The notes under the pieces were generated by a model, which saw only the letters and a program-made list of their open reading frames with translations, had not been told where the DNA came from and did no database searches. This document shows, one piece after another, positions 25,337 to 57,008 of a stretch of DNA of 64,000 nt. Both the position numbers and the translations under genes were made by a program. Origin of the DNA: Acidimicrobiia bacterium (GTDB lineage: Bacteria > Actinomycetota > Acidimicrobiia > Acidimicrobiales > JANYDT01); assembly GCA_031429095.1 (NCBI GenBank), contig JANOYY010000037.1, positions 4,883 to 68,882 on the forward strand. Reading direction: 5' to 3'. How positions within the stretch are numbered: the first letter of the stretch is position 1; each line of letters opens with the position of its first letter.

Positions 25337-26197
25337 ATGAACCCGGTACCAAACCCTGTCGTGCCCGTCGCAAATCGCTTCACGCGTCGACATGCCCTTC
25401 GGCTCGGCGGCCTCGGTGTCGTAGGCGCAATTGTCGCGGCCTGTGGTTCCACTTCGTCCAACACCACCGATGGTACGGGTGCGAGTACGGCGAGCGACGT
25501 TGGATCGGCCGCTGAAGCTACGACTGAAGCGACCGTGGACGCGGCAGCGGCGACTGCGGCGGAACTCGCCTCGCTAAGCGCCCGAGACTTTGCGTCACTC
25601 GGTGCATGCCAGCTTGCACCGGAAAAGACAGCCGGTCCCTACCCCCTCGATGAGCAGTTCAACCGCCGTGACGTCACTGAAGGGATGCCCGGTCATCCGA
25701 CTCGCCTCGGATTTCGCGTTCTGGATGACAATTGCGCGCCGGTGAGCAGCGCAACGGTCGAGATCTGGCATGTCGATGCCACGGGCGATTACTCCGCCTT
25801 CGTCGACAATGGAGGAGGTAAGGACAGCGGACCGGGCACCACGTTCCTGCGAGGTACACAGCCGACGAATGCCGACGGTATCGTGGAGTTTCATACGGTG
25901 TACCCCGGCTGGTATCGCGGCCGGGCGGTCCACATTCACCTACGTGTGCATATGAATGACCAGATCGTGCTGACCAGTCAGGTGTTCTTCGACGCCGACT
26001 ATACGGCGTCGGTGTACCAATCGGCTCCCTACTCCGACAACGGACTGCCCGATACGCCCAACGAGTCCGACAACATTGCCGGTGACGTGAAGGCGGAGGG
26101 CACGCTCATGGCTACGATCGCTGGACCGACCCTTCGCGGCACCGGAACGGTGGCCCTCATCAACCTTGGCATCAATCCGACAACCCTCTTCGGGTAG
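25337..26197 (+). CDS. Intradiol ring-cleavage dioxygenase family protein with Tat/lipoprotein signal
   Basis: In-frame ATG 25337 gives [36 protein letters not shown] (twin-Arg plus lipobox). [37 protein letters not shown]. The N-terminal 284 aa of the track ORF is an off-frame shadow of potC. Confidence 0.7.
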
Positions 26198-26249: not shown

Positions 26250-27251
26250 ATGTCGAAACAGCACAAGGTTGCCATCCTCGGTGGCGATGGAATCGGTCCC
26301 GAAGTCACCGCCGAAGCACTGAAGGTCGTTGCCGCAGCGGGCGTGGGACTCGACACGAAAGAGTACGACCTCGGTGGACGCCGGTACCATACAACCGGCG
26401 AAACGCTTTCCGACGCGACTTTGGCGGAACTGCGAGGGTACGACGCAATCTTGCTTGGTGCCATCGGCACACCCAGCGTCGCCCCTGGAGTGCTTGAGCG
26501 CGGTCTGCTGCTGAAGATGCGCTTCGAGTTGGACCTGTACATCAACCAGCGTCCGTTCCTCTATCCCCAGAACAACGTCGACTGCATCGTGATTCGTGAG
26601 AACACCGAAGGCACCTACGCTGGCGAGGGCGGACTCCTTCGCAAGGGGACGGCCCACGAAGTAGCGACGCAAGGCAGTGTCAACACACGCATGGGAGTAG
26701 AGCGCTGCGTGCGTTACGCGTTTGAACTTGCCCGCAGCCGCCCGCGCAGGCACCTTACATTGGTCCATAAGACGAACGTGCTGCAATTCTCGGGCGACCT
26801 TTGGCAGCGCACGTTCAACGAGGTGGCTAGCGAGTATTGCGACGTCGAGACGGCGTATAACCATGTCGATGCAGCGTGTATCTACTTCGTGGATTCGCCG
26901 CAACGCTACGACGTGTTGGTGACCGACAACCTTTTCGGTGACATCCTTACCGACCTCGCAGGAGCAGTGAGTGGCGGTGTCGGCCTTGCCTCGTCGGCGA
27001 ACCTCAACCCTGCTCGTACAGGTCCCTCGATGTTCGAGCCGGTGCACGGTTCTGCGCCCGATATCGTCGGCACCGGCAAGGCCGATCCGCGTGCCGCGAT
27101 CATCTCTGCGTCGTTGATGCTGAACTTCCTCGGAGAGCCGGCAGCGGCCGCGAAGATCAAGGCCGTTGTCGAGGCAACGGTGACGGGTAACTCGGCAATG
27201 CCCGCCGGACCAACGTCGGCAATTGGCGACTACATCGCGGCGCACGTCTAG
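26250..27251 (+). CDS. leuB: 3-isopropylmalate dehydrogenase
   Basis: ATG 26250 gives [62 protein letters not shown]. Confidence 0.88.
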
Positions 27252-49800: not shown

Positions 49801-50195
49801 AGCAGGACCCTTCCAAGCTCATTGCGGAATCGAACGTGCTTCGGCACCGACCGCTTCCCAACGGGGTCGCCGTGCGACTCGGGGATGGAGCGCCAGCGTG
49901 GGCGCAGAGCGTTCTGAGGGCGGCGGCTGTTGCGACCGGCACACCGGTTTGGTCCTCGGCTGCCTCTCTCGAATCGGAGGTGGACTTTCTCACTCGATTG
50001 GTGGGAACCAAGGTGGACCGAGTCCGAGTCATTGGGCAGGTCTCGCGTGAACTACATGCAGCCCTGCACGAGCATGGCGTTACTGTCGACGACGCTGCGC
50101 TCACCACGAACCCCCGTCTTGAACTGTCCCACTGGCTGCGCGAACAATCGGTGACGATCACTCGGCACCGTCATGGACATATGATCACCCCGTGA
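46845..50195 (+). CDS. putA: Bifunctional proline dehydrogenase / L-glutamate gamma-semialdehyde dehydrogenase
   Basis: PRODH barrel (VLQAYLPDA, IRLVKGANLAMER) followed by ALDH (PPWNFPFAI, ETSGKNAI, GQKCSAAS catalytic Cys). 1116 aa. Confidence 0.92.
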   Translation: MNVSGSNPDAVTGLVERAVALAGEVVAAIEPANRRLVSVVRDRAAAEFTFALTDEILRCPDPRTSAAAFRALVARGLPRSFPVSDRVLLAIGAQSTRLAPGLVMKLVSSRLRQVSATSVLPSEDPALAKRLAATRSGGSSTNVNVLGEAIIGEGEAIRRRDRVVAMLGRSDVDAVSVKLSSIAANLSPLAFDATVARVVDRLTPIYRAALARDVPALVTLDMEEYRDLELTAEVLLRALSSPEFDQLRAGIVLQAYLPDAHAIAERLIDFALLRRARGGAPIRIRLVKGANLAMERVEAEQRGWPLATFGSKPEVDASYKRLLRRLMAAQHNDAVIVGLASHNVFDIAYGLTLAIEQRATGAAASLEFETLEGMATGLAAALAKRGESSLVYSPVVAHGAFEAAIAYLVRRLDENTSPENFLHAVLDLEPGSRRFTMEADKFVASLEASYTLNTSSRRERDRRDLSPSFANEVDTDFALGRNRKLAIAALDQWSPPRGPVQPIVAGTSRTTHNQRALMNPSVGERIGMVQLADFALVDECVGAARVAINAWAAQSPAQRGDVIARIGDVVAVQRFEILATMAFETGKTVSQGDPEVSEAIDFARYYASNADLLRGLSDSGPVATPHGVVVVTPPWNFPFAILLGGVTGALMAGNAVIIKPAPQAVLCAELVARCCWEAGVPRDVLQFLPCGDDEVGQHLVAHPGVDTILLTGGIETARMFQQWRPERKVLAETSGKNAIVITASADIDSALKDLVASAFGHAGQKCSAASLAIFAPCWYDNPEVLERLADAVRSLEVGPASDPATDVGPLIEPPSPKLRRALTVLDAGEVWLVEPRQLDADGRVWTPGVRVGVARGSWFHQTECFGPVLGVMRAESLADALATQNGVEFGLTAGLQSLDEREVATWIERVEAGNLYVNRSITGAIVRRQPFGGWKNSSVGPGAKAGGPGYVVSLQNWRESGEPTSDVVADVAARFREVADSYFFAEQDPSKLIAESNVLRHRPLPNGVAVRLGDGAPAWAQSVLRAAAVATGTPVWSSAASLESEVDFLTRLVGTKVDRVRVIGQVSRELHAALHEHGVTVDDAALTTNPRLELSHWLREQSVTITRHRHGHMITP

Positions 50196-50917
50196 CCGCC
50201 GAAGATCGCGAGGAGTTGTTGCGTGCCGCGCTCCTCACTGCCGATCTGCTCGATGGTGTGCCGAACGTGATGTTTTGCGTGAAGGACCGACACGGTCGAT
50301 ACCAGCGCGTGAATCAGGCGTTCGCGGATCGGTGTGGAAAGCGTCGGCCAAGCAATGTCGTGGGCCGCACCGCCCGTGACTTGTTTCCGACGCTTCTTGC
50401 GGCCGACTACGAAGCCCAGGATCGGTCGGTGCTCTCTACGTCCCGGCCGATGCAAAACCAACTGGAACGCATCACACGCCTTGATGGCAGCGTCGGATGG
50501 TACGTGTCGAGCAAGGTCGCAGTTCCAGGGGCTGCGGGGCCTGTCGGCGTCGCATCGTTATCTGTAGACTTACGAAGTGCGGTTTCGGCAGAGGACGAGT
50601 TCGCTGGTCTCGCTGCAGCCTTTGAATTGTTGCGGACGCATTCGACAGGTCCACTTCGCGTCGACGAGGTCGCAGCCGTCGCCCAACTCAGTGAGACGCA
50701 ACTCGAACGCAGAATGAAGCGGCTGTTTGGTATCACGGCGAAACAAGTCATCGTGCGGATCCGGGTCGATACGGCAGCTCGGCTTCTCGTCACGACGTCG
50801 CTCAACGTGGCAGAGGTCGCAATTGCCGCTGGTTTCTACGATCACAGTCAAATGGCCCGGACGTTTCGCTCGGTTCTCGGGGTGTCGCCCACCCAATATC
50901 GACGTGCCGGGCGCTAA
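50192..50917 (+). CDS. PAS domain-containing AraC family transcriptional regulator
   Basis: N-terminal PAS-like region (FCVKDRHGRYQRVNQAF) and C-terminal AraC HTH (VAEVAIAAGFYDHSQMARTFRSVLGVSPTQYRR). GTGA overlap with the putA stop. Confidence 0.8.
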   Translation: MTAEDREELLRAALLTADLLDGVPNVMFCVKDRHGRYQRVNQAFADRCGKRRPSNVVGRTARDLFPTLLAADYEAQDRSVLSTSRPMQNQLERITRLDGSVGWYVSSKVAVPGAAGPVGVASLSVDLRSAVSAEDEFAGLAAAFELLRTHSTGPLRVDEVAAVAQLSETQLERRMKRLFGITAKQVIVRIRVDTAARLLVTTSLNVAEVAIAAGFYDHSQMARTFRSVLGVSPTQYRRAGR

Positions 50918-51058
50918 CCTGCAAAGCGCTGACGAAGTCACGCGCTATCACCATGGGCAGGAGCTCGTCGACTACGTCGAACCTCGGTTTGGGTTGAGTT
51001 TCGGGTGGCTCAGTCCCGGTCGTTGAGCTGGCCGTTTGATTCGTGGCATACTTTTGCG

Positions 51059-51136
51059 ATGATGTTCGCCGCCGACTTCCGTGTCTCCTTGCACGGCATT
51101 GTGCACGGCATTGCCTCGATCATCATTATTTGCTAG
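51059..51136 (+). CDS. Candidate Ile-rich leader peptide (25 aa) of cimA
   Basis: atg atg ttc ... tcg atc atc att att tgc tag gives MMFAADFRVSLHGIVHGIASIIIIC. Four consecutive Ile codons lie immediately before Cys-stop. No clear Shine-Dalgarno. Confidence 0.5.
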   Translation: MMFAADFRVSLHGIVHGIASIIIIC

Positions 51137-51196
51137 CGCGCACCGCCTATTCGGTGCGCGCATCCACGACCGCCTCCGGGCGGTCGTTTCGTATTT
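51136..51196 (+). promoter_or_regulatory. Candidate transcription attenuator: 10-bp GC hairpin abutting the leader stop, then a 9-bp hairpin plus T-rich tract
   Basis: gcgcgcaccg/cggtgcgcgc (51136-51145 / 51152-51161). acgaccgcc/ggcggtcgt (51166-51174 / 51179-51187) followed by tttcgtattt. ACCGCC occurs in both 5' arms. The cimA ATG is 46 nt downstream. Confidence 0.5.
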
Positions 51197-51241
51197 CAGG
51201 ACCAAACCCGCAACCCCGAACCAGTAGCCAAAGGAACCACC

Positions 51242-52910: not shown

Positions 52911-54806
52911 TCAGGTCGGACAGGAGAAGGGGATTGACTCGTACTCGACGCTGGTTACCGATTCGGGTAGCGCGGTGGGGATAAGGTCGGTGGTGTCGAA
53001 CCCGGCGCCGGACCCGACGGCTTCCCTAAGACATGTGGGAACGTGCACGATGTGAGGCCCGCCGGCGAGAGCGGCAGTGACCCGGGAGACGGCTGGACCG
53101 CCATTGATACCGAACAGCAGAGGTGTGTCGCGTAGCGTACGAAGCGCGCTTATGTTTCGTTGGAAACGTGCGACCACGAGAGTTTCGGGTCGGTCTCCCG
53201 GAGCAAAGGCCGGTAACGCGGTGGGGCGACCGCAGGCCGATGTCGCCCGCCGCGTCCACGCCGTCCAGCCGCCACCCGACGCGTTGGGGGAGTACCAGCA
53301 CACCATGGCAAGCATGGACTCCGGTGGCGTCCATCGGGGAATGCGCCCATCAATTGCCGTGTTCTGGCTCAGGATGACCTGCGGCGCCCGCTTCTTATTA
53401 AGAAGCACACGTACATTGAGCCGATCGAGCATCGGCGTGTTGGCCTGATACGTCTGAAAGACAGGGAGTGGACGCCACGCCCAGCCATGAACCCAGATCG
53501 CCGACGTCTCAAGCGGGTCGATGTGCACAGTTTTGCCACGTGCGACCGCTCGTACATTCTCCGGAATGCCTTGGAGCGGACCCAGTCGGTCATGCTCACG
53601 CCTCACACGTCCGACATAGCGAGTAACTGACACGGTGAACTCGAAAGTACGCCACGCATAACGAAACCCGGTCGTCGGATGGGCGAATGGAACTTCACCG
53701 CGAGGCCATCCGAATCGAGGAAACGGCTGGCCCGCGTCGTTGAGCGACATGCCCGTGACAACGAGAAAGGTCATACACAACACGCTCACCCACCGGTTCC
53801 GACGATTGGCGAACAGCAGCACGATCGCCGCGCAGAGCACCACGAGTCGCAGCACATGTCCGCTGTCGTAGCGTCCGAAGGACTGCTGGAACGTGGTGAG
53901 CGCGAGGCCCAAAAGTCCGAGCACGCCAAACACTGACGGACGCCGAAGCGAACGTGAAAGACCCACCGCGAGCAGCGTCGCTACGACGACGCCCGCGGAC
54001 GCACGCGTCGTCCACGACGAATGAGCAGACCAAGCCATTCCTCCGCCGTAACCTCGACCCAATTCGATTGATCCGTGTACATATGGAAACAACGTCGAGA
54101 TGGGTTGCCCGAGGAGTATCCACGCGACAAGCACGGTCGAGGCAAACATCGCGAATAGACGAGCGATTCGTCGCCATCCAACCTTGCGATCGAACGCAAC
54201 AAGCAACATGAGGAGAAACCCGACCAGGCCCGTGTCGAAACGAACCAGCAGGGCAAGACCGGAAGCCACTGCAGCGGTGGACAGTGCACGCTGCGGGACA
54301 ACCATATCGGTGAGCACCGCCCGCACCGCAAACGCAGCAGCGATGACATAGACGGCGACAATGAGGTTGCCGCCACCTCCGAGTCCACCGACGAGGAGCC
54401 AGGTGATGGGGAACGCTGCGGCAACGCAAACCGCCGCGGCCACAACTCGTCGGAATTGCGACCGTCCGGCTGGAACAATGCTGCGAAGCCGCCGAAGGAC
54501 CAACCAAGCAACGCCGACGAACGCCGGGAGGCGAATCCAGTACGCAGCGAGACCCGTGACCCGGTACGCCATGGTGGGGGAGACAAGGAAGCCGAGCGGG
54601 CCAAAGGTCCACATCACGTCGCGTCCGAAGGCCAGGTTCTGGGCATGGGCAGTGTGAAGTCCGAGTCCCCAAGAAGGATCGAGCCCAATGCCAACCACAA
54701 ATCCGACCACCGGAATAACGGAGATCCCAACGATCACCGAGGCCAAAAGCATCAACAAGTGATCCCAAGAGGGAATCTGGCGGACGATTCGGGGCAGGCG
54801 TGGCAC
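52911..54806 (-). CDS. Hypothetical polytopic membrane protein with a large C-terminal extracytoplasmic domain (GT-C-like architecture, function unknown)
   Basis: About 12 hydrophobic segments followed by roughly 250 hydrophilic residues. The track ORF (862 aa) is trimmed to GTG 54806 (AAGG..GGA upstream) because its first ~230 codons are antisense to a better ORF at 54882-55421. Confidence 0.55.
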   Translation of the reverse strand: MPRLPRIVRQIPSWDHLLMLLASVIVGISVIPVVGFVVGIGLDPSWGLGLHTAHAQNLAFGRDVMWTFGPLGFLVSPTMAYRVTGLAAYWIRLPAFVGVAWLVLRRLRSIVPAGRSQFRRVVAAAVCVAAAFPITWLLVGGLGGGGNLIVAVYVIAAAFAVRAVLTDMVVPQRALSTAAVASGLALLVRFDTGLVGFLLMLLVAFDRKVGWRRIARLFAMFASTVLVAWILLGQPISTLFPYVHGSIELGRGYGGGMAWSAHSSWTTRASAGVVVATLLAVGLSRSLRRPSVFGVLGLLGLALTTFQQSFGRYDSGHVLRLVVLCAAIVLLFANRRNRWVSVLCMTFLVVTGMSLNDAGQPFPRFGWPRGEVPFAHPTTGFRYAWRTFEFTVSVTRYVGRVRREHDRLGPLQGIPENVRAVARGKTVHIDPLETSAIWVHGWAWRPLPVFQTYQANTPMLDRLNVRVLLNKKRAPQVILSQNTAIDGRIPRWTPPESMLAMVCWYSPNASGGGWTAWTRRATSACGRPTALPAFAPGDRPETLVVARFQRNISALRTLRDTPLLFGINGGPAVSRVTAALAGGPHIVHVPTCLREAVGSGAGFDTTDLIPTALPESVTSVEYESIPFSCPT

Positions 54807-54881
54807 AGTGCTTCCAACCTTAGGCACCGGGTTCGGCGCGAGCGCGCCCTCAGGCCCGTCCGTCTGGAAGAATGGGCGACA

Positions 54882-55421
54882 ATGGCCGCACCAAAGTTCG
54901 TCCCCGTTTCCCCTGTCGGCGCGTTTCGTTCGAGCGAGACCCTTCCCGCGGCGCTTGAATGGCGCGCCGATCGCCCTGGCGATCTTGTTGGCGCACAGCC
55001 GAAGGGCACGAAGCTGGGAAGCCCCGGCCCCGATCAGGGGTACGCCATCAAGCTGGCGAATTCTTTCCACGGAAAGTTGTTCCTCCACCCGGGCGAGCAC
55101 GAGCACGATGTGCTGGTCGGGATCTTGGGTGTGGCGCTCAAGCGGGCGTCGCTCTATGGCCGCGCTCCGGTGATCCATGACATTACGCGCGCACTTGAAG
55201 TGTTCGGGTTTTTGAACGCCGACGCGCCCAAGGACCTGGTTGCGTTCCGCACCTCGCTCTTCGAAGCGGCCGGGCACCACTATGAACTGCAGCGAGCGAT
55301 TGCCGACGTCGTGCCGGAGTCGACGCTGCGCACGGGTGCCTTTGTGATCGAGCGAGCGGCAACGGGCAACTGGCGCTCGCTTCTCGATCTGCCGGGCGAT
55401 CAGGGCACTCCCGGGCGATAG
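54882..55421 (+). CDS. Hypothetical protein (179 aa)
   Basis: ATG 54882 gives MAAPKFVPVSP.... Protein-like composition compared with the Arg/Pro-rich upstream part of the track ORF. No family recognised. Confidence 0.5.
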   Translation: MAAPKFVPVSPVGAFRSSETLPAALEWRADRPGDLVGAQPKGTKLGSPGPDQGYAIKLANSFHGKLFLHPGEHEHDVLVGILGVALKRASLYGRAPVIHDITRALEVFGFLNADAPKDLVAFRTSLFEAAGHHYELQRAIADVVPESTLRTGAFVIERAATGNWRSLLDLPGDQGTPGR

Positions 55422-55445
55422 TCCCGAATCCGCCCCGAAATCAGA

Positions 55446-57008
55446 GTGGACGACCAGATGGCACAAGCGGTGATCAGTCCCGATTGGCTCCGATATCACG
55501 CCCGCTCACGGCCGGAGGCGGTAGCCGTTGTCGACATCGGTTCGGGGCGGCGATTCACGTACGAAGAGTTCAACCTCCGGGCCGAATGCCTGGCTGCGTC
55601 CATGCAACTTGACTTCGGGATCCAGGCGGGCGACCGAGTGGCCATCTACAGCCAGAACACATCGAACATCTTCGAGGTGCAGTTCGCCTGCTGGAAGCTC
55701 GGCGCCTCCTATGTTCCCCTGAACTGGCGTCTGGCGTTACGCGAACTCGTCTACATCGCCACCGACTGCTCGCCCAAAATGCTGTTCCACGAGGGAGAAC
55801 GGGCCGACGTAGCCGAGGCGTTCGCGACAACCGCGGGCATCACGCAACGCGTCTGCTGGGACGGTGTTAGCTCGGGTGCGGCGGACTACGAATCGATGCT
55901 CGTTACCTCGGATTCGACATTCGTACGCGCGCAGAACAGTCATGACACGCTCGCATGCGTTATGTACACGTCCGGCACGACCGGACATCCAAAAGGGGCG
56001 ATAATCACCCACGGCGCGATGCTGTGGAATATCCTCAGCGCAACGGCGCCCTTCGCATTCCGGGCGGGCATGGTGAACCTGTCCATCCTGCCGCTGTTCC
56101 ATATCGGCGGCATCAACGCGTTTGCCAACCCGGCCTTCCACTATGGCGGTACGAGCCACATCACCCGTGCCTTCGATCCCGCCCTCACCCTTGAGCTGCT
56201 GAACGACCCAACGATCGGTATCACCCACTTCCTCTGTGTTCCGTCGAACTATCTGTTCATGAGCCAGGACCCGCGCTTCGAGACGGCGACGTTCCCGACC
56301 CTCGTTACGGCCGGGATCGGTGGCGCCCCCACACCGCTGGCACTCCTGGAGCGTTGGGCCGCCAAGGGTGTGATCCTCCAGCAGGGGTACGGGATGACGG
56401 AAAGCGCAGCAACAATAAGCGCGCAGACGAAATCCGAGGCGATCGAAAAGGTCGGCTCGATCGGCACTCCGCTCTTGCACCTCGAACACCGGATTGTCGA
56501 TGAAAACGGAATCGACGTGCCGGTCGGGGGTGTGGGGGAACTGTGGGTACGCGCCCCGAACATCAGCCCCGGATACCTGAACCGGCCCGATGCCAACGAG
56601 TCGAGTTACACCGACGGTTGGTTCCACACGGGCGACGCAATGAAGGAAGACGCCAACGGTGCCCTGTACATCCTTGACCGATGGAAGGACATGTACATCT
56701 CGGGTGGCGAGAACGTGTACCCAGCGGAAGTAGAAAATGTGCTCTACGGCATTGATGGGATTCTCGAAGCGGCGGTGATCGGCGTACCCGACGAACGATG
56801 GGGCGAAGTCGGCAAGGCCTACGTCGTCCGCAAGCCAGACGACGCGGGCAGGTCACTGAAGGCACAAGAGATCACCGACCGTTGCGTCGCCGACCTGGCC
56901 AAGTACAAGGTGCCGCGCTACATCGAGTTCATCGACGAACTCCCCCACAACGCCACGGGCAAGATCCTTAAACGTGACCTCCGATCTCGCGCCGCGCCGG
57001 TCGGTTAA
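55446..57008 (+). CDS. AMP-dependent acyl-CoA synthetase/ligase (FadD-like)
   Basis: MYTSGTTGHPKGA (AMP motif), QGYGMTES, TGD, GKILKRDLR. Confidence 0.88.
   Translation: MDDQMAQAVISPDWLRYHARSRPEAVAVVDIGSGRRFTYEEFNLRAECLAASMQLDFGIQAGDRVAIYSQNTSNIFEVQFACWKLGASYVPLNWRLALRELVYIATDCSPKMLFHEGERADVAEAFATTAGITQRVCWDGVSSGAADYESMLVTSDSTFVRAQNSHDTLACVMYTSGTTGHPKGAIITHGAMLWNILSATAPFAFRAGMVNLSILPLFHIGGINAFANPAFHYGGTSHITRAFDPALTLELLNDPTIGITHFLCVPSNYLFMSQDPRFETATFPTLVTAGIGGAPTPLALLERWAAKGVILQQGYGMTESAATISAQTKSEAIEKVGSIGTPLLHLEHRIVDENGIDVPVGGVGELWVRAPNISPGYLNRPDANESSYTDGWFHTGDAMKEDANGALYILDRWKDMYISGGENVYPAEVENVLYGIDGILEAAVIGVPDERWGEVGKAYVVRKPDDAGRSLKAQEITDRCVADLAKYKVPRYIEFIDELPHNATGKILKRDLRSRAAPVG

Follow-up and report, generated by a model that had tools for sequence, protein, structure and literature searches.

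The 64,000-nucleotide (nt) stretch of contig JANOYY010000037.1 from an uncultured Acidimicrobiia bacterium (assembly GCA_031429095.1), referred to here as the window, carries upstream of cimA, the gene for citramalate synthase, a leader in which a short peptide rich in isoleucine (Ile) and an intrinsic terminator very probably control the gene as an Ile-sensing, ribosome-dependent transcription attenuator. The leader comprises (i) a small open reading frame (ORF) that closes with four consecutive Ile codons, one further codon and a TAG stop; (ii) a stable stem-loop, hairpin A, that abuts the stop codon; and (iii) a second stem-loop, hairpin B, which forms the terminator together with a U-rich tract. 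These elements, described in a first-pass annotation of the same DNA, are confirmed at the coordinates of Table 1, and the proposal made there that cimA is Ile-attenuated is strongly supported by sequence comparison, including leaders at 11 cimA loci, leaders of the leuB type that head leuB-ilvE-cimA operons and a leucine (Leu) twin placed before leuA. In the citramalate pathway to Ile, CimA catalyzes the initial reaction. The attenuator is best read as an unusual two-hairpin design that would operate without an antiterminator.

The features of the window leader go beyond chance, as judged from (i) the predicted fold of the 206-nt leader, at -75.8 kcal/mol against -58.9 +/- 3.8 kcal/mol for shuffled sequences (z = -4.5); (ii) the single occurrence of IIII, the leader's own run, when the window (61% G+C) is translated in all six frames; (iii) the lack of any further AT-rich codon run adjoining a stop in the window; and (iv) the recurrence of the leader in relatives. 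Hairpin A has a free energy of about -20 kcal/mol, and hairpin B with its U-tract is called by a terminator scan. A generic repeated terminator, or an element of the repetitive extragenic palindrome (REP) kind, was considered for hairpin B and rejected, the exact motif occurring once in the window; among 80 cimA loci, it is confined to the orthologous leaders.

The leader mRNA is probably leaderless, starting at the ATG of the leader ORF, because a -10-like hexamer lies 6 nt before this ATG and no Shine-Dalgarno sequence is found between the two. Most family members display a -10-like NANNNT box 6-10 nt (~6-8 nt in most) before the leader ATG, GTG or TTG, the boxes being read by eye at the ~10 loci where automatic picks were wrong or missing, and L003, L004 and L207 present TTGACC at 17 nt from the -10 box. 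Shine-Dalgarno sequences were not seen before the leader ORFs of the 11 cimA-type loci. Leaderless mRNAs are common in Actinomycetota (bioRxiv 10.1101/834739).

Conservation of the leader and its relatives

The cimA-type set comprises 11 distinct Acidimicrobiia loci, including L001-L004 and L007, which are species representatives with 74-95% CimA identity; L202, L204, L207 and L209, found through CimA homologs; and L148, reached with a hairpin-A pattern that contains no Ile codons. The 11 loci share one order of elements, namely a short ORF, IIII-X-TAG, hairpin A, hairpin B, the U-tract and then cimA. The first-pass annotation had proposed a comparison of orthologous cimA upstream regions as a check, and this comparison finds both the Ile run and the stems conserved, compensatory stem changes appearing once the leuB-type and Leu leaders are included. 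The run IIII is kept in 10 of the 11 leaders and reads IITI in L209, the Ile codons otherwise varying at third positions only (C/T). The TAG, both stems and the U-tract are preserved at all 11 loci, with T-rich tails after hairpin B (TTTTGT..., TTTGTCGTT) in all relatives, and TAG is the stop in 15/15 Ile leaders that were retrieved without TAG in the query. The variable parts are the length of the ORF (12-25 codons), its diverged N-terminal peptide, the X codon, the hairpin loops and the untranslated region 3' of the terminator, whose stretch up to the cimA start differs in sequence and ranges from ~25 to 100 nt, with 45 nt in the window. Directly 3' of the terminator U-tract, L001, which is the window's closest relative, carries a tandem duplication of 13 nt (GTATTTCCGAGCT x2; L001:1435-1460).

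Features consistent with translation of the predicted leader ORF are an in-frame ATG or GTG 6-10 nt after the -10-like box in all members, the restriction of Ile codon variation to third positions and the conserved position of the stop. The genes 5' of the module differ between cimA loci, comprising an AraC-type gene, ilvE, leuB and others; since the module stays with cimA irrespective of the gene 5' of it, it is an element of cimA and not a terminator serving the preceding gene.

A related leader heads leuB-ilvE-cimA operons. A metagenome scan with a pattern made of TAG and hairpin A, holding neither the Ile codons nor hairpin B, returned ~20 further leaders (metagenome loci L084-L198) that also contain a second hairpin and a U-tract. 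Their peptides end in tails rich in Ile and valine (Val), such as VIIIQ, IVIIR, VIVIG and GIAIP, and the gene 3' of them is leuB (NF002898, 485-514 bits), the LeuB proteins belonging to Aquihabitans and other Acidimicrobiales. In Aquihabitans sp. G128, whose genome is complete (CP077604.1, L201:5818-5905), the order is leader (MSDPTPVRIIG*, the asterisk marking the stop), leuB, ilvE, cimA, an arrangement also found in Aquihabitans sp. McL0605 (CP188252.1, L210:1329-1430) and at two loci from metagenome-assembled genomes (MAGs); further peptides of this type read MPHPALVITIA* and MSRPALVIVIG. The presence of the leuB version in two cultured Aquihabitans strains makes the mechanism experimentally tractable. 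The literature search returned no description of a leuB-ilvE-cimA leader.

The two leader types are related, because a covariance model built from 23 leuB-type leaders only detects every cimA-type leader at full length (E = 1e-10 to 1e-17), scoring the window leader at 56.6 bits (E ~1e-15). They have in common the promoter type, the leaderless ORF, an Ile at position -2, the TAG, a near-identical hairpin A, a short spacer and a terminator, whereas the leuB type contains fewer, interspersed Ile/Val codons instead of IIII, carries a different terminator stem (GCCGUCCAC/GUGGGCGGC) and heads a three-gene operon. A U-G wobble in the middle of this stem (alignment columns 62/76) is invariant in 23/23 leuB-type leaders, the cimA type having C-G at the same place. 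In addition, many leuB-type peptides start with MS(R/D/T)P and have a C-rich 5' part, and the Ile codons very often follow immediately on GTA, a rare Val codon (..CCG GTA ATC ATC.., as in L084, L103, L119, L178 and L201), the feature being located 3-9 nt 5' of them; the pattern suggests nucleotide-level or additional Val-sensing constraints.

In the clade of the window, leuB, and ilvE where present, are without a leader, and the leader is placed directly before cimA, as seen in the window, L202, L204 and L209. The simplest history consistent with these gene orders would be that an operon leader became a cimA-specific leader, a move that would confine Ile control to the committed, Ile-specific step. 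The outcome is a regulatory rewiring, with an Ile leader on the whole leuB-ilvE-cimA operon in some lineages and only on the committed Ile-specific enzyme in others. The more distant cimA loci L008-L012 carry leuB-ilvE directly 5' of cimA, which explains why no leader is seen within 1.5 kb of cimA; in L005 and L006, tblastn finds no ilvE directly 5' of cimA. One LeuB lineage, P0096 (L211-L214), is without an Ile leader, and a G+C-rich 5' region of ~280 nt precedes leuB-ilvE-cimA at L211:1220-1500, with the same region in L213 and L214.

Weak full-length matches of the covariance model led to a further group of elements, located 5' of leuA (IPMS_D2-type, 567 aa), in which the same chassis appears re-coded for Leu. 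The leader peptides of the four loci in Table 1 read MNFTGLLLLM*, VTRFELLLLM*, MSTFGLLLLM* and MSLTISLLLLM*, each leader comprising a leaderless ORF that ends in LLLL-M-stop, a hairpin starting at the stop codon, a spacer of 0-3 nt and a terminator. The Leu hairpin (GCGAGCACC/GGUGCUCGC) and the Ile hairpin (GCGCACACC/GGUGUGCGC) are two compensatory pairs apart, and the Leu hairpins also co-vary among themselves. The codon run in each case matches the end product of the gene that follows, Ile with cimA or leuB-ilvE-cimA and Leu with leuA, and this correspondence is, among the sequence comparisons, the strongest argument that the leader ORFs would sense the cognate amino acid.

The same correspondence supports the assignment of the regulated gene as cimA rather than leuA, which the first-pass annotation had favored and which the protein itself upholds. 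The product scores 666.7 bits with TIGR00977, against a curated equivalog cutoff of 450, and 205-264 bits with the LeuA equivalog models, against cutoffs of 517-748. It comprises the Pfam domains HMGL-like, HCS_D2 (not IPMS_D2) and LeuA_dimer, and its closest relatives are proteins from Acidimicrobiia/Acidimicrobiales MAGs, with JANOWU010000195.1 at 95% identity. Relatives carry a separate leuA of the IPMS_D2 type, preceded by the LLLL leaders. The match between codon run and gene offers an aid for telling CimA from LeuA paralogs that requires nothing but the sequence.

The unit of ORF and hairpins has its own promoter and terminator, and it could be imagined as an independent small gene for a micro-protein or a small RNA, exerting no effect in cis on cimA. 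In other bacteria, leader RNAs released by termination can function in trans, and the sequence of hairpin A is conserved beyond the requirements of a simple stem. This explanation is nevertheless very improbable in view of (i) the leader peptide, which is not conserved apart from its Ile run; (ii) the position of the unit, always directly 5' and on the same strand of cimA or leuB-ilvE-cimA, with the Leu twin 5' of leuA; and (iii) the 45-nt gap before cimA, in which no other cimA promoter is evident.

Hairpin geometry and the proposed switch

Covariation supports both stems of the attenuator. In the alignment of all Ile leaders, which is model-fitted and leans towards the structure, 99% of the cells are paired and 10/20 pairs change on both sides, and the alignment beats every shuffle and every slid register by far. 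In hairpin B, cimA-type and leuB-type leaders differ on both sides of 8/10 pairs. All relatives retain hairpin A; in the 15 Ile leaders whose retrieval did not depend on it, pair 5 is G-C, G-U or A-U and pair 7 is A-U or G-U. The geometry is equally constrained, with hairpin A beginning within the stop codon in all Ile leaders, a spacer of 0-5 nt (median 3) between the two hairpins, and one variable codon between the last Ile and the stop in 32/34 Ile leaders, the exceptions being L175 and L184, with the last Ile 2-3 codons before the stop.

The first-pass annotation implied the classical enterobacterial mechanism with mutually exclusive pairings, pointing to the hexamer ACCGCC in the 5' arms of both hairpins. 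The hexamer is indeed present in both arms (51142-47 and 51169-74), and in the window and L001 the GGCGGT of the terminator 3' arm could pair with either copy; furthermore, CGGU of the hairpin A 3' arm can form 4 bp with ACCG of the hairpin B 5' arm, and an antiterminator between the P1 loop and the P2 3' shoulder has been proposed for the Corynebacterium ilvB-II motif (PMC10272879). The alternative pairing built on the hexamer, however, finds no support, and a classical four-segment attenuator, in which a stalled ribosome would free the hairpin A 3' arm or ACCGCC for an antiterminator that excludes the terminator, is highly improbable. Specifically, (i) ACCGCC is restricted to the window and L001, being missing from L002, L003, L004, L007 and the leuB-type leaders; (ii) in constrained folding of six sequences at six ribosome positions, with the footprint masked at each Ile, X and the stop, hairpin B retains a probability of 0.997-1.000, so that the terminator stands at ~1.0 at every ribosome position; (iii) the segment from the hairpin A loop to the hairpin B 5' arm averages -5.9 kcal/mol in 33 leaders, against -7.1 kcal/mol in shuffles; (iv) hairpin A is constant while the sequence of hairpin B changes between cimA-type and leuB-type leaders, which speaks against their co-evolution as competitors; and (v) the Ile codons lie 5' of hairpin A and not within its 5' arm. 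An antiterminator mutually exclusive with the terminator, a defining trait of the classical family, is lacking in these predicted folds.

The switch of the two-hairpin attenuator may be geometric, because no antiterminator pairing exists. The usual ribosome footprint extends ~15 nt 3' of the first P-site base. By this estimate, a ribosome awaiting Ile-tRNA leaves hairpin A folded, with no more than 4-5 bp opened when it waits at the last Ile codon, whereas a ribosome at the stop codon melts the whole 5' arm of hairpin A; the stalled and stop states differ in the folding of hairpin A, which in turn determines how much flexible RNA separates the ribosome from the terminator base. With ample Ile-tRNA, the ribosome would reach the TAG, unwind hairpin A and depart, the terminator would form, and most transcripts would stop near 51190-51196. 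With scarce Ile-tRNA, the ribosome would wait on the Ile codons, 5-17 nt 5' of hairpin A, fewer polymerases would terminate, and cimA would be transcribed. The tether from the ribosome to the terminator base would measure ~4-13 nt in the stalled state, with hairpin A folded, versus ~20 nt of single strand at the stop, and a stalled ribosome kept close by the folded hairpin A would sterically keep the terminator stem from closing fully inside the exit channel of the polymerase. Hairpin A may, in addition, serve as a pause hairpin that brings translation into step with transcription. This particular steric or tether switch, with hairpin A folded before the stalled ribosome, is put forward as the preferred but tentative model of the geometry.

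More broadly, the Acidimicrobiia may possess an undescribed class of antiterminator-free attenuators in which hairpin A serves as mechanical relay and pause element, and in which one chassis has been re-coded for Ile or Leu, a generalization that we consider possible but doubtful as it stands. The proposed chassis would comprise a leaderless ORF closing with a codon run, a single spacer codon and a stop that lies within a stable hairpin, and a terminator 0-5 nt 3' of this hairpin. The absence of an antiterminator in three related leader families bears on the actinobacterial terminator-only leaders noted in 2005 (PMC1262725).

Several points weigh against attenuation of cimA as outlined here. 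The probability of hairpin B is unchanged under the ribosome masks, and the segment from the hairpin A loop to the hairpin B 5' arm is no more structured than shuffles, so that standard rules do not account for the way in which a stalled ribosome would lead to readthrough. A strict sigma-70 promoter scan calls no promoter at the leader, and the literature search found no precedent for steric or antiterminator-free attenuation. The near-invariance of hairpin A across cimA-type and leuB-type leaders, covering its basal GCGC(A/G)C...G(U/C)GCGC and apical CACC...GGUG parts, is partly circular, 19 of the leuB-type sequences having been found by a pattern that fixes hairpin A. Finally, mutation of the presumed regulatory codons in the Streptomyces coelicolor ilvB leader is reported to have had no effect (PMC1262725), which indicates that actinobacterial leader-like ORFs are not always functional attenuators.

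If a folded hairpin A, as pause site or enhancer, were needed for efficient termination at hairpin B, a ribosome on the last Ile codon(s) would partly melt or occlude it, and termination would fall under Ile starvation, whereas hairpin A would refold once a ribosome had finished and departed. When the A site is occupied by the last Ile codon, the footprint extends ~4-5 nt into hairpin A, and masks at Ile3/Ile4 cut hairpin A to 4-8 bp. The tight one-codon spacing from the last Ile to the stop suits any model in which the ribosome edge touches hairpin A, and the interrupted terminator U-tracts (TTCGTATTT, TTTGTCGTT) suggest that hairpin B alone may be suboptimal. Hairpin-A-dependent termination is, however, unlikely, although it fares better than the classical scheme. 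Hairpin A is out of reach of ribosomes stalled at the first two or three Ile codons; L175 and L184, with their more distant last Ile, depart from the required spacing; and a ribosome at the stop melts hairpin A completely, so that the model gives readthrough also when Ile is plentiful. To our knowledge, no mechanism has been described by which an otherwise canonical terminator would depend on a hairpin 5' of it.

Control could also be exerted on translation, the Ile tract or hairpin A sequestering the cimA ribosome-binding site until a stalled ribosome frees it. Precedents exist in Mycolicibacterium smegmatis, where leaderless short ORFs with 3' runs of cognate codons regulate translation of the next gene (bioRxiv 10.1101/834739), and in the LEU element, where the Leu-codon run pairs with the leuA Shine-Dalgarno sequence (PMC1262725). 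At cimA, by contrast, a canonical, conserved and covarying terminator sits between the ORF and the gene, complementarity between AUCAUCAU and the cimA initiation region does not exceed 4 nt, and the stretch from terminator to cimA varies in length (~25-100 nt) and sequence in a manner that argues against sequestration, leaving translational attenuation with very little probability.

The near-invariant basal and apical parts of hairpin A in both leader types might, on the other hand, mark a protein-binding site, either a DNA palindrome or an RNA hairpin, with the protein as main sensor and the Ile run as a secondary one. A DNA operator palindrome was rejected on account of the variable half-site spacing, the G-U pairs and the compensatory changes: the half-sites lie 3-8 nt apart, a distance unfit for a dimeric DNA-binding protein, G-U pairs would be mismatches in DNA, and the compensatory changes occur in the Leu version of hairpin A. 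As hairpin A is, moreover, always locked to the stop codon, a protein as main sensor seems very improbable, an RNA-binding one being the less improbable of the two kinds.

Window features and neighboring genes

The coordinates of the leader, the regulated gene and the Leu leaders are collected in Table 1.

Table 1. Features of the cimA leader in the window (positions of the window, unless a locus is given) and of the Leu leaders before leuA
Feature	Position	Strand	Remarks
Leader promoter, -35-like hexamer TTGAGC	51023..51028	+	18 nt 5' of the -10-like hexamer; putative, from sequence
Leader promoter, -10-like hexamer CATACT (NANNNT type)	51047..51052	+	6 nt 5' of the leader ATG
Leader ORF, 25 codons, MMFAADFRVSLHGIVHGIASIIIIC*	51059..51136	+	6 Ile and 2 Val; reads ATG ATG TTC ... 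TGC TAG
Regulatory run, 4 Ile codons ATC ATC ATT ATT	51119..51130	+	Followed by a TGC codon, then TAG
Leader stop TAG	51134..51136	+	Its G is base 1 of hairpin A
Hairpin A	51136..51161	+	GCGCGCACCG-CCTATT-CGGTGCGCGC; 10 perfect pairs, 6-nt loop CCTATT; abuts the stop codon
Hairpin B, intrinsic-terminator stem	51166..51187	+	ACGACCGCC-TCCG-GGCGGTCGT; 9 bp, loop TCCG; 4 nt 3' of hairpin A
Terminator U-rich tract TTCGTATTT	51188..51196	+	Directly 3' of hairpin B
cimA Shine-Dalgarno AGGA	51232..51235	+	6 nt 5' of the cimA ATG
cimA, citramalate synthase, 551 aa	51242..52897	+	TIGR00977 and Pfam; regulated gene
Leu leaders before leuA	L207:5729-5832, L204:6031-6132, L005:3436-3538, L202:7805-7910		Same architecture as the Ile leader

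The leader ORF of the window is in frame with cimA, and the TAG at 51134 is the sole stop between them, so that readthrough would give a fusion. A fusion to CimA by stop-codon readthrough or frameshifting, or translation across the terminator, was rejected, neither the frame relation nor the open frames being kept in the 33 other leaders, several of which contain in-frame stops 8-9 codons 3' of the leader stop; the shared frame is probably a coincidence.

Upstream of the leader, a gene for an AraC-family regulator with a PAS domain (50192-50917, + strand) ends 141 nt 5' of the leader ORF. It is probably unrelated to the control of cimA, because it is not kept beside the leader in relatives. 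Downstream, an 862-aa ORF (52911-55499, - strand) converges on cimA, with 14 nt between both stop codons, and shows no NCBIfam or Pfam match at E <= 0.001. The window also contains leuB (26250-27251, + strand; Iso_dh), whose product displays 73-76% identity to the LeuB proteins encoded behind leaders. A gap of 52 nt, which holds no hairpins, separates this leuB from the preceding 570-aa Dioxygenase_C ORF (stop at 26197), and neither the covariance model nor direct reading finds a second leader copy before it. Neither leuA nor an LLLL leader is present in the window.

Comparison with known attenuators and leader peptides

If the reading given here is correct, citramalate synthase and the threonine-independent Ile pathway would gain their first assigned attenuator, and the Acidimicrobiia, an abundant and barely cultured class of soil and freshwater bacteria, their first described cis-regulatory RNA. 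The literature covered, which leaves out most subscription journals, contains no report linking cimA, citramalate or Acidimicrobiia with a leader peptide, an attenuator or an upstream ORF (uORF). In Rfam 15, neither leader reaches a gathering score; the best match of the window leader is RNAI (20.7 versus 47 bits) and that of the Aquihabitans leader is isrB (29.5 versus 35 bits), both being chance matches to two-hairpin small RNAs.

The classical attenuators of E. coli and Salmonella (trpL, leuL, ilvL/ivbL, hisL, thrL and pheL) likewise place an ORF with end-product codons between the promoter and an intrinsic terminator, and they share with the cimA leader the presumed sensing by ribosome stalling on hungry codons. 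The cimA leader differs from them in that (i) there is no 2:3 antiterminator; (ii) the codons lie 5' of the first hairpin and not inside it; (iii) the stop codon is part of the first hairpin; (iv) the mRNA is predicted to be leaderless; and (v) the regulated gene encodes citramalate synthase.

Closer in taxonomy are the leaders of Corynebacterium ilvBNC/ilvB-II (PMC10272879) and of actinobacterial ilvB genes (PMC1262725), which also comprise an Ile/Val/Leu-rich peptide and a strong terminator, the two-hairpin picture (P1, P2) being common to ilvB-II and the cimA leader. The comparative study of 2005 already recorded leaders that have terminators but miss components of the classical attenuator (PMC1262725). 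In the ilvB leaders and ilvB-II, however, the uORF spans P1, with regulatory codons that overlap P1 or the terminator, and a pairing of the P1 loop with the P2 3' shoulder is proposed as antiterminator, whereas the cimA leader ORF ends at base 1 of hairpin A and no locus besides the window and L001 offers the 6-bp ACCGCC/GGCGGU pairing. Besides these differences, the ilvB leaders belong to another gene and another bacterial class, with no sequence or model similarity to the cimA leader in the Rfam search.

The LEU element found before actinobacterial leuA (PMC1262725) is described as a pseudoknot in which the Leu codons and the leuA Shine-Dalgarno sequence together form the base stem, implying translational control. 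The Ile and Leu leaders of the Acidimicrobiia, in contrast, present a stop-abutting hairpin and a canonical terminator, with no conserved pairing to the downstream start. The mycobacterial poly-Cys leaderless short ORFs (bioRxiv 10.1101/834739; PMC4633059) resemble the cimA leader in being the first cistron, in carrying cognate codons at the 3' end, in preceding genes of the matching pathway and in occurring in Actinomycetota; unlike the cimA leader, they free a sequestered Shine-Dalgarno sequence and act on translation, with no intrinsic terminator.

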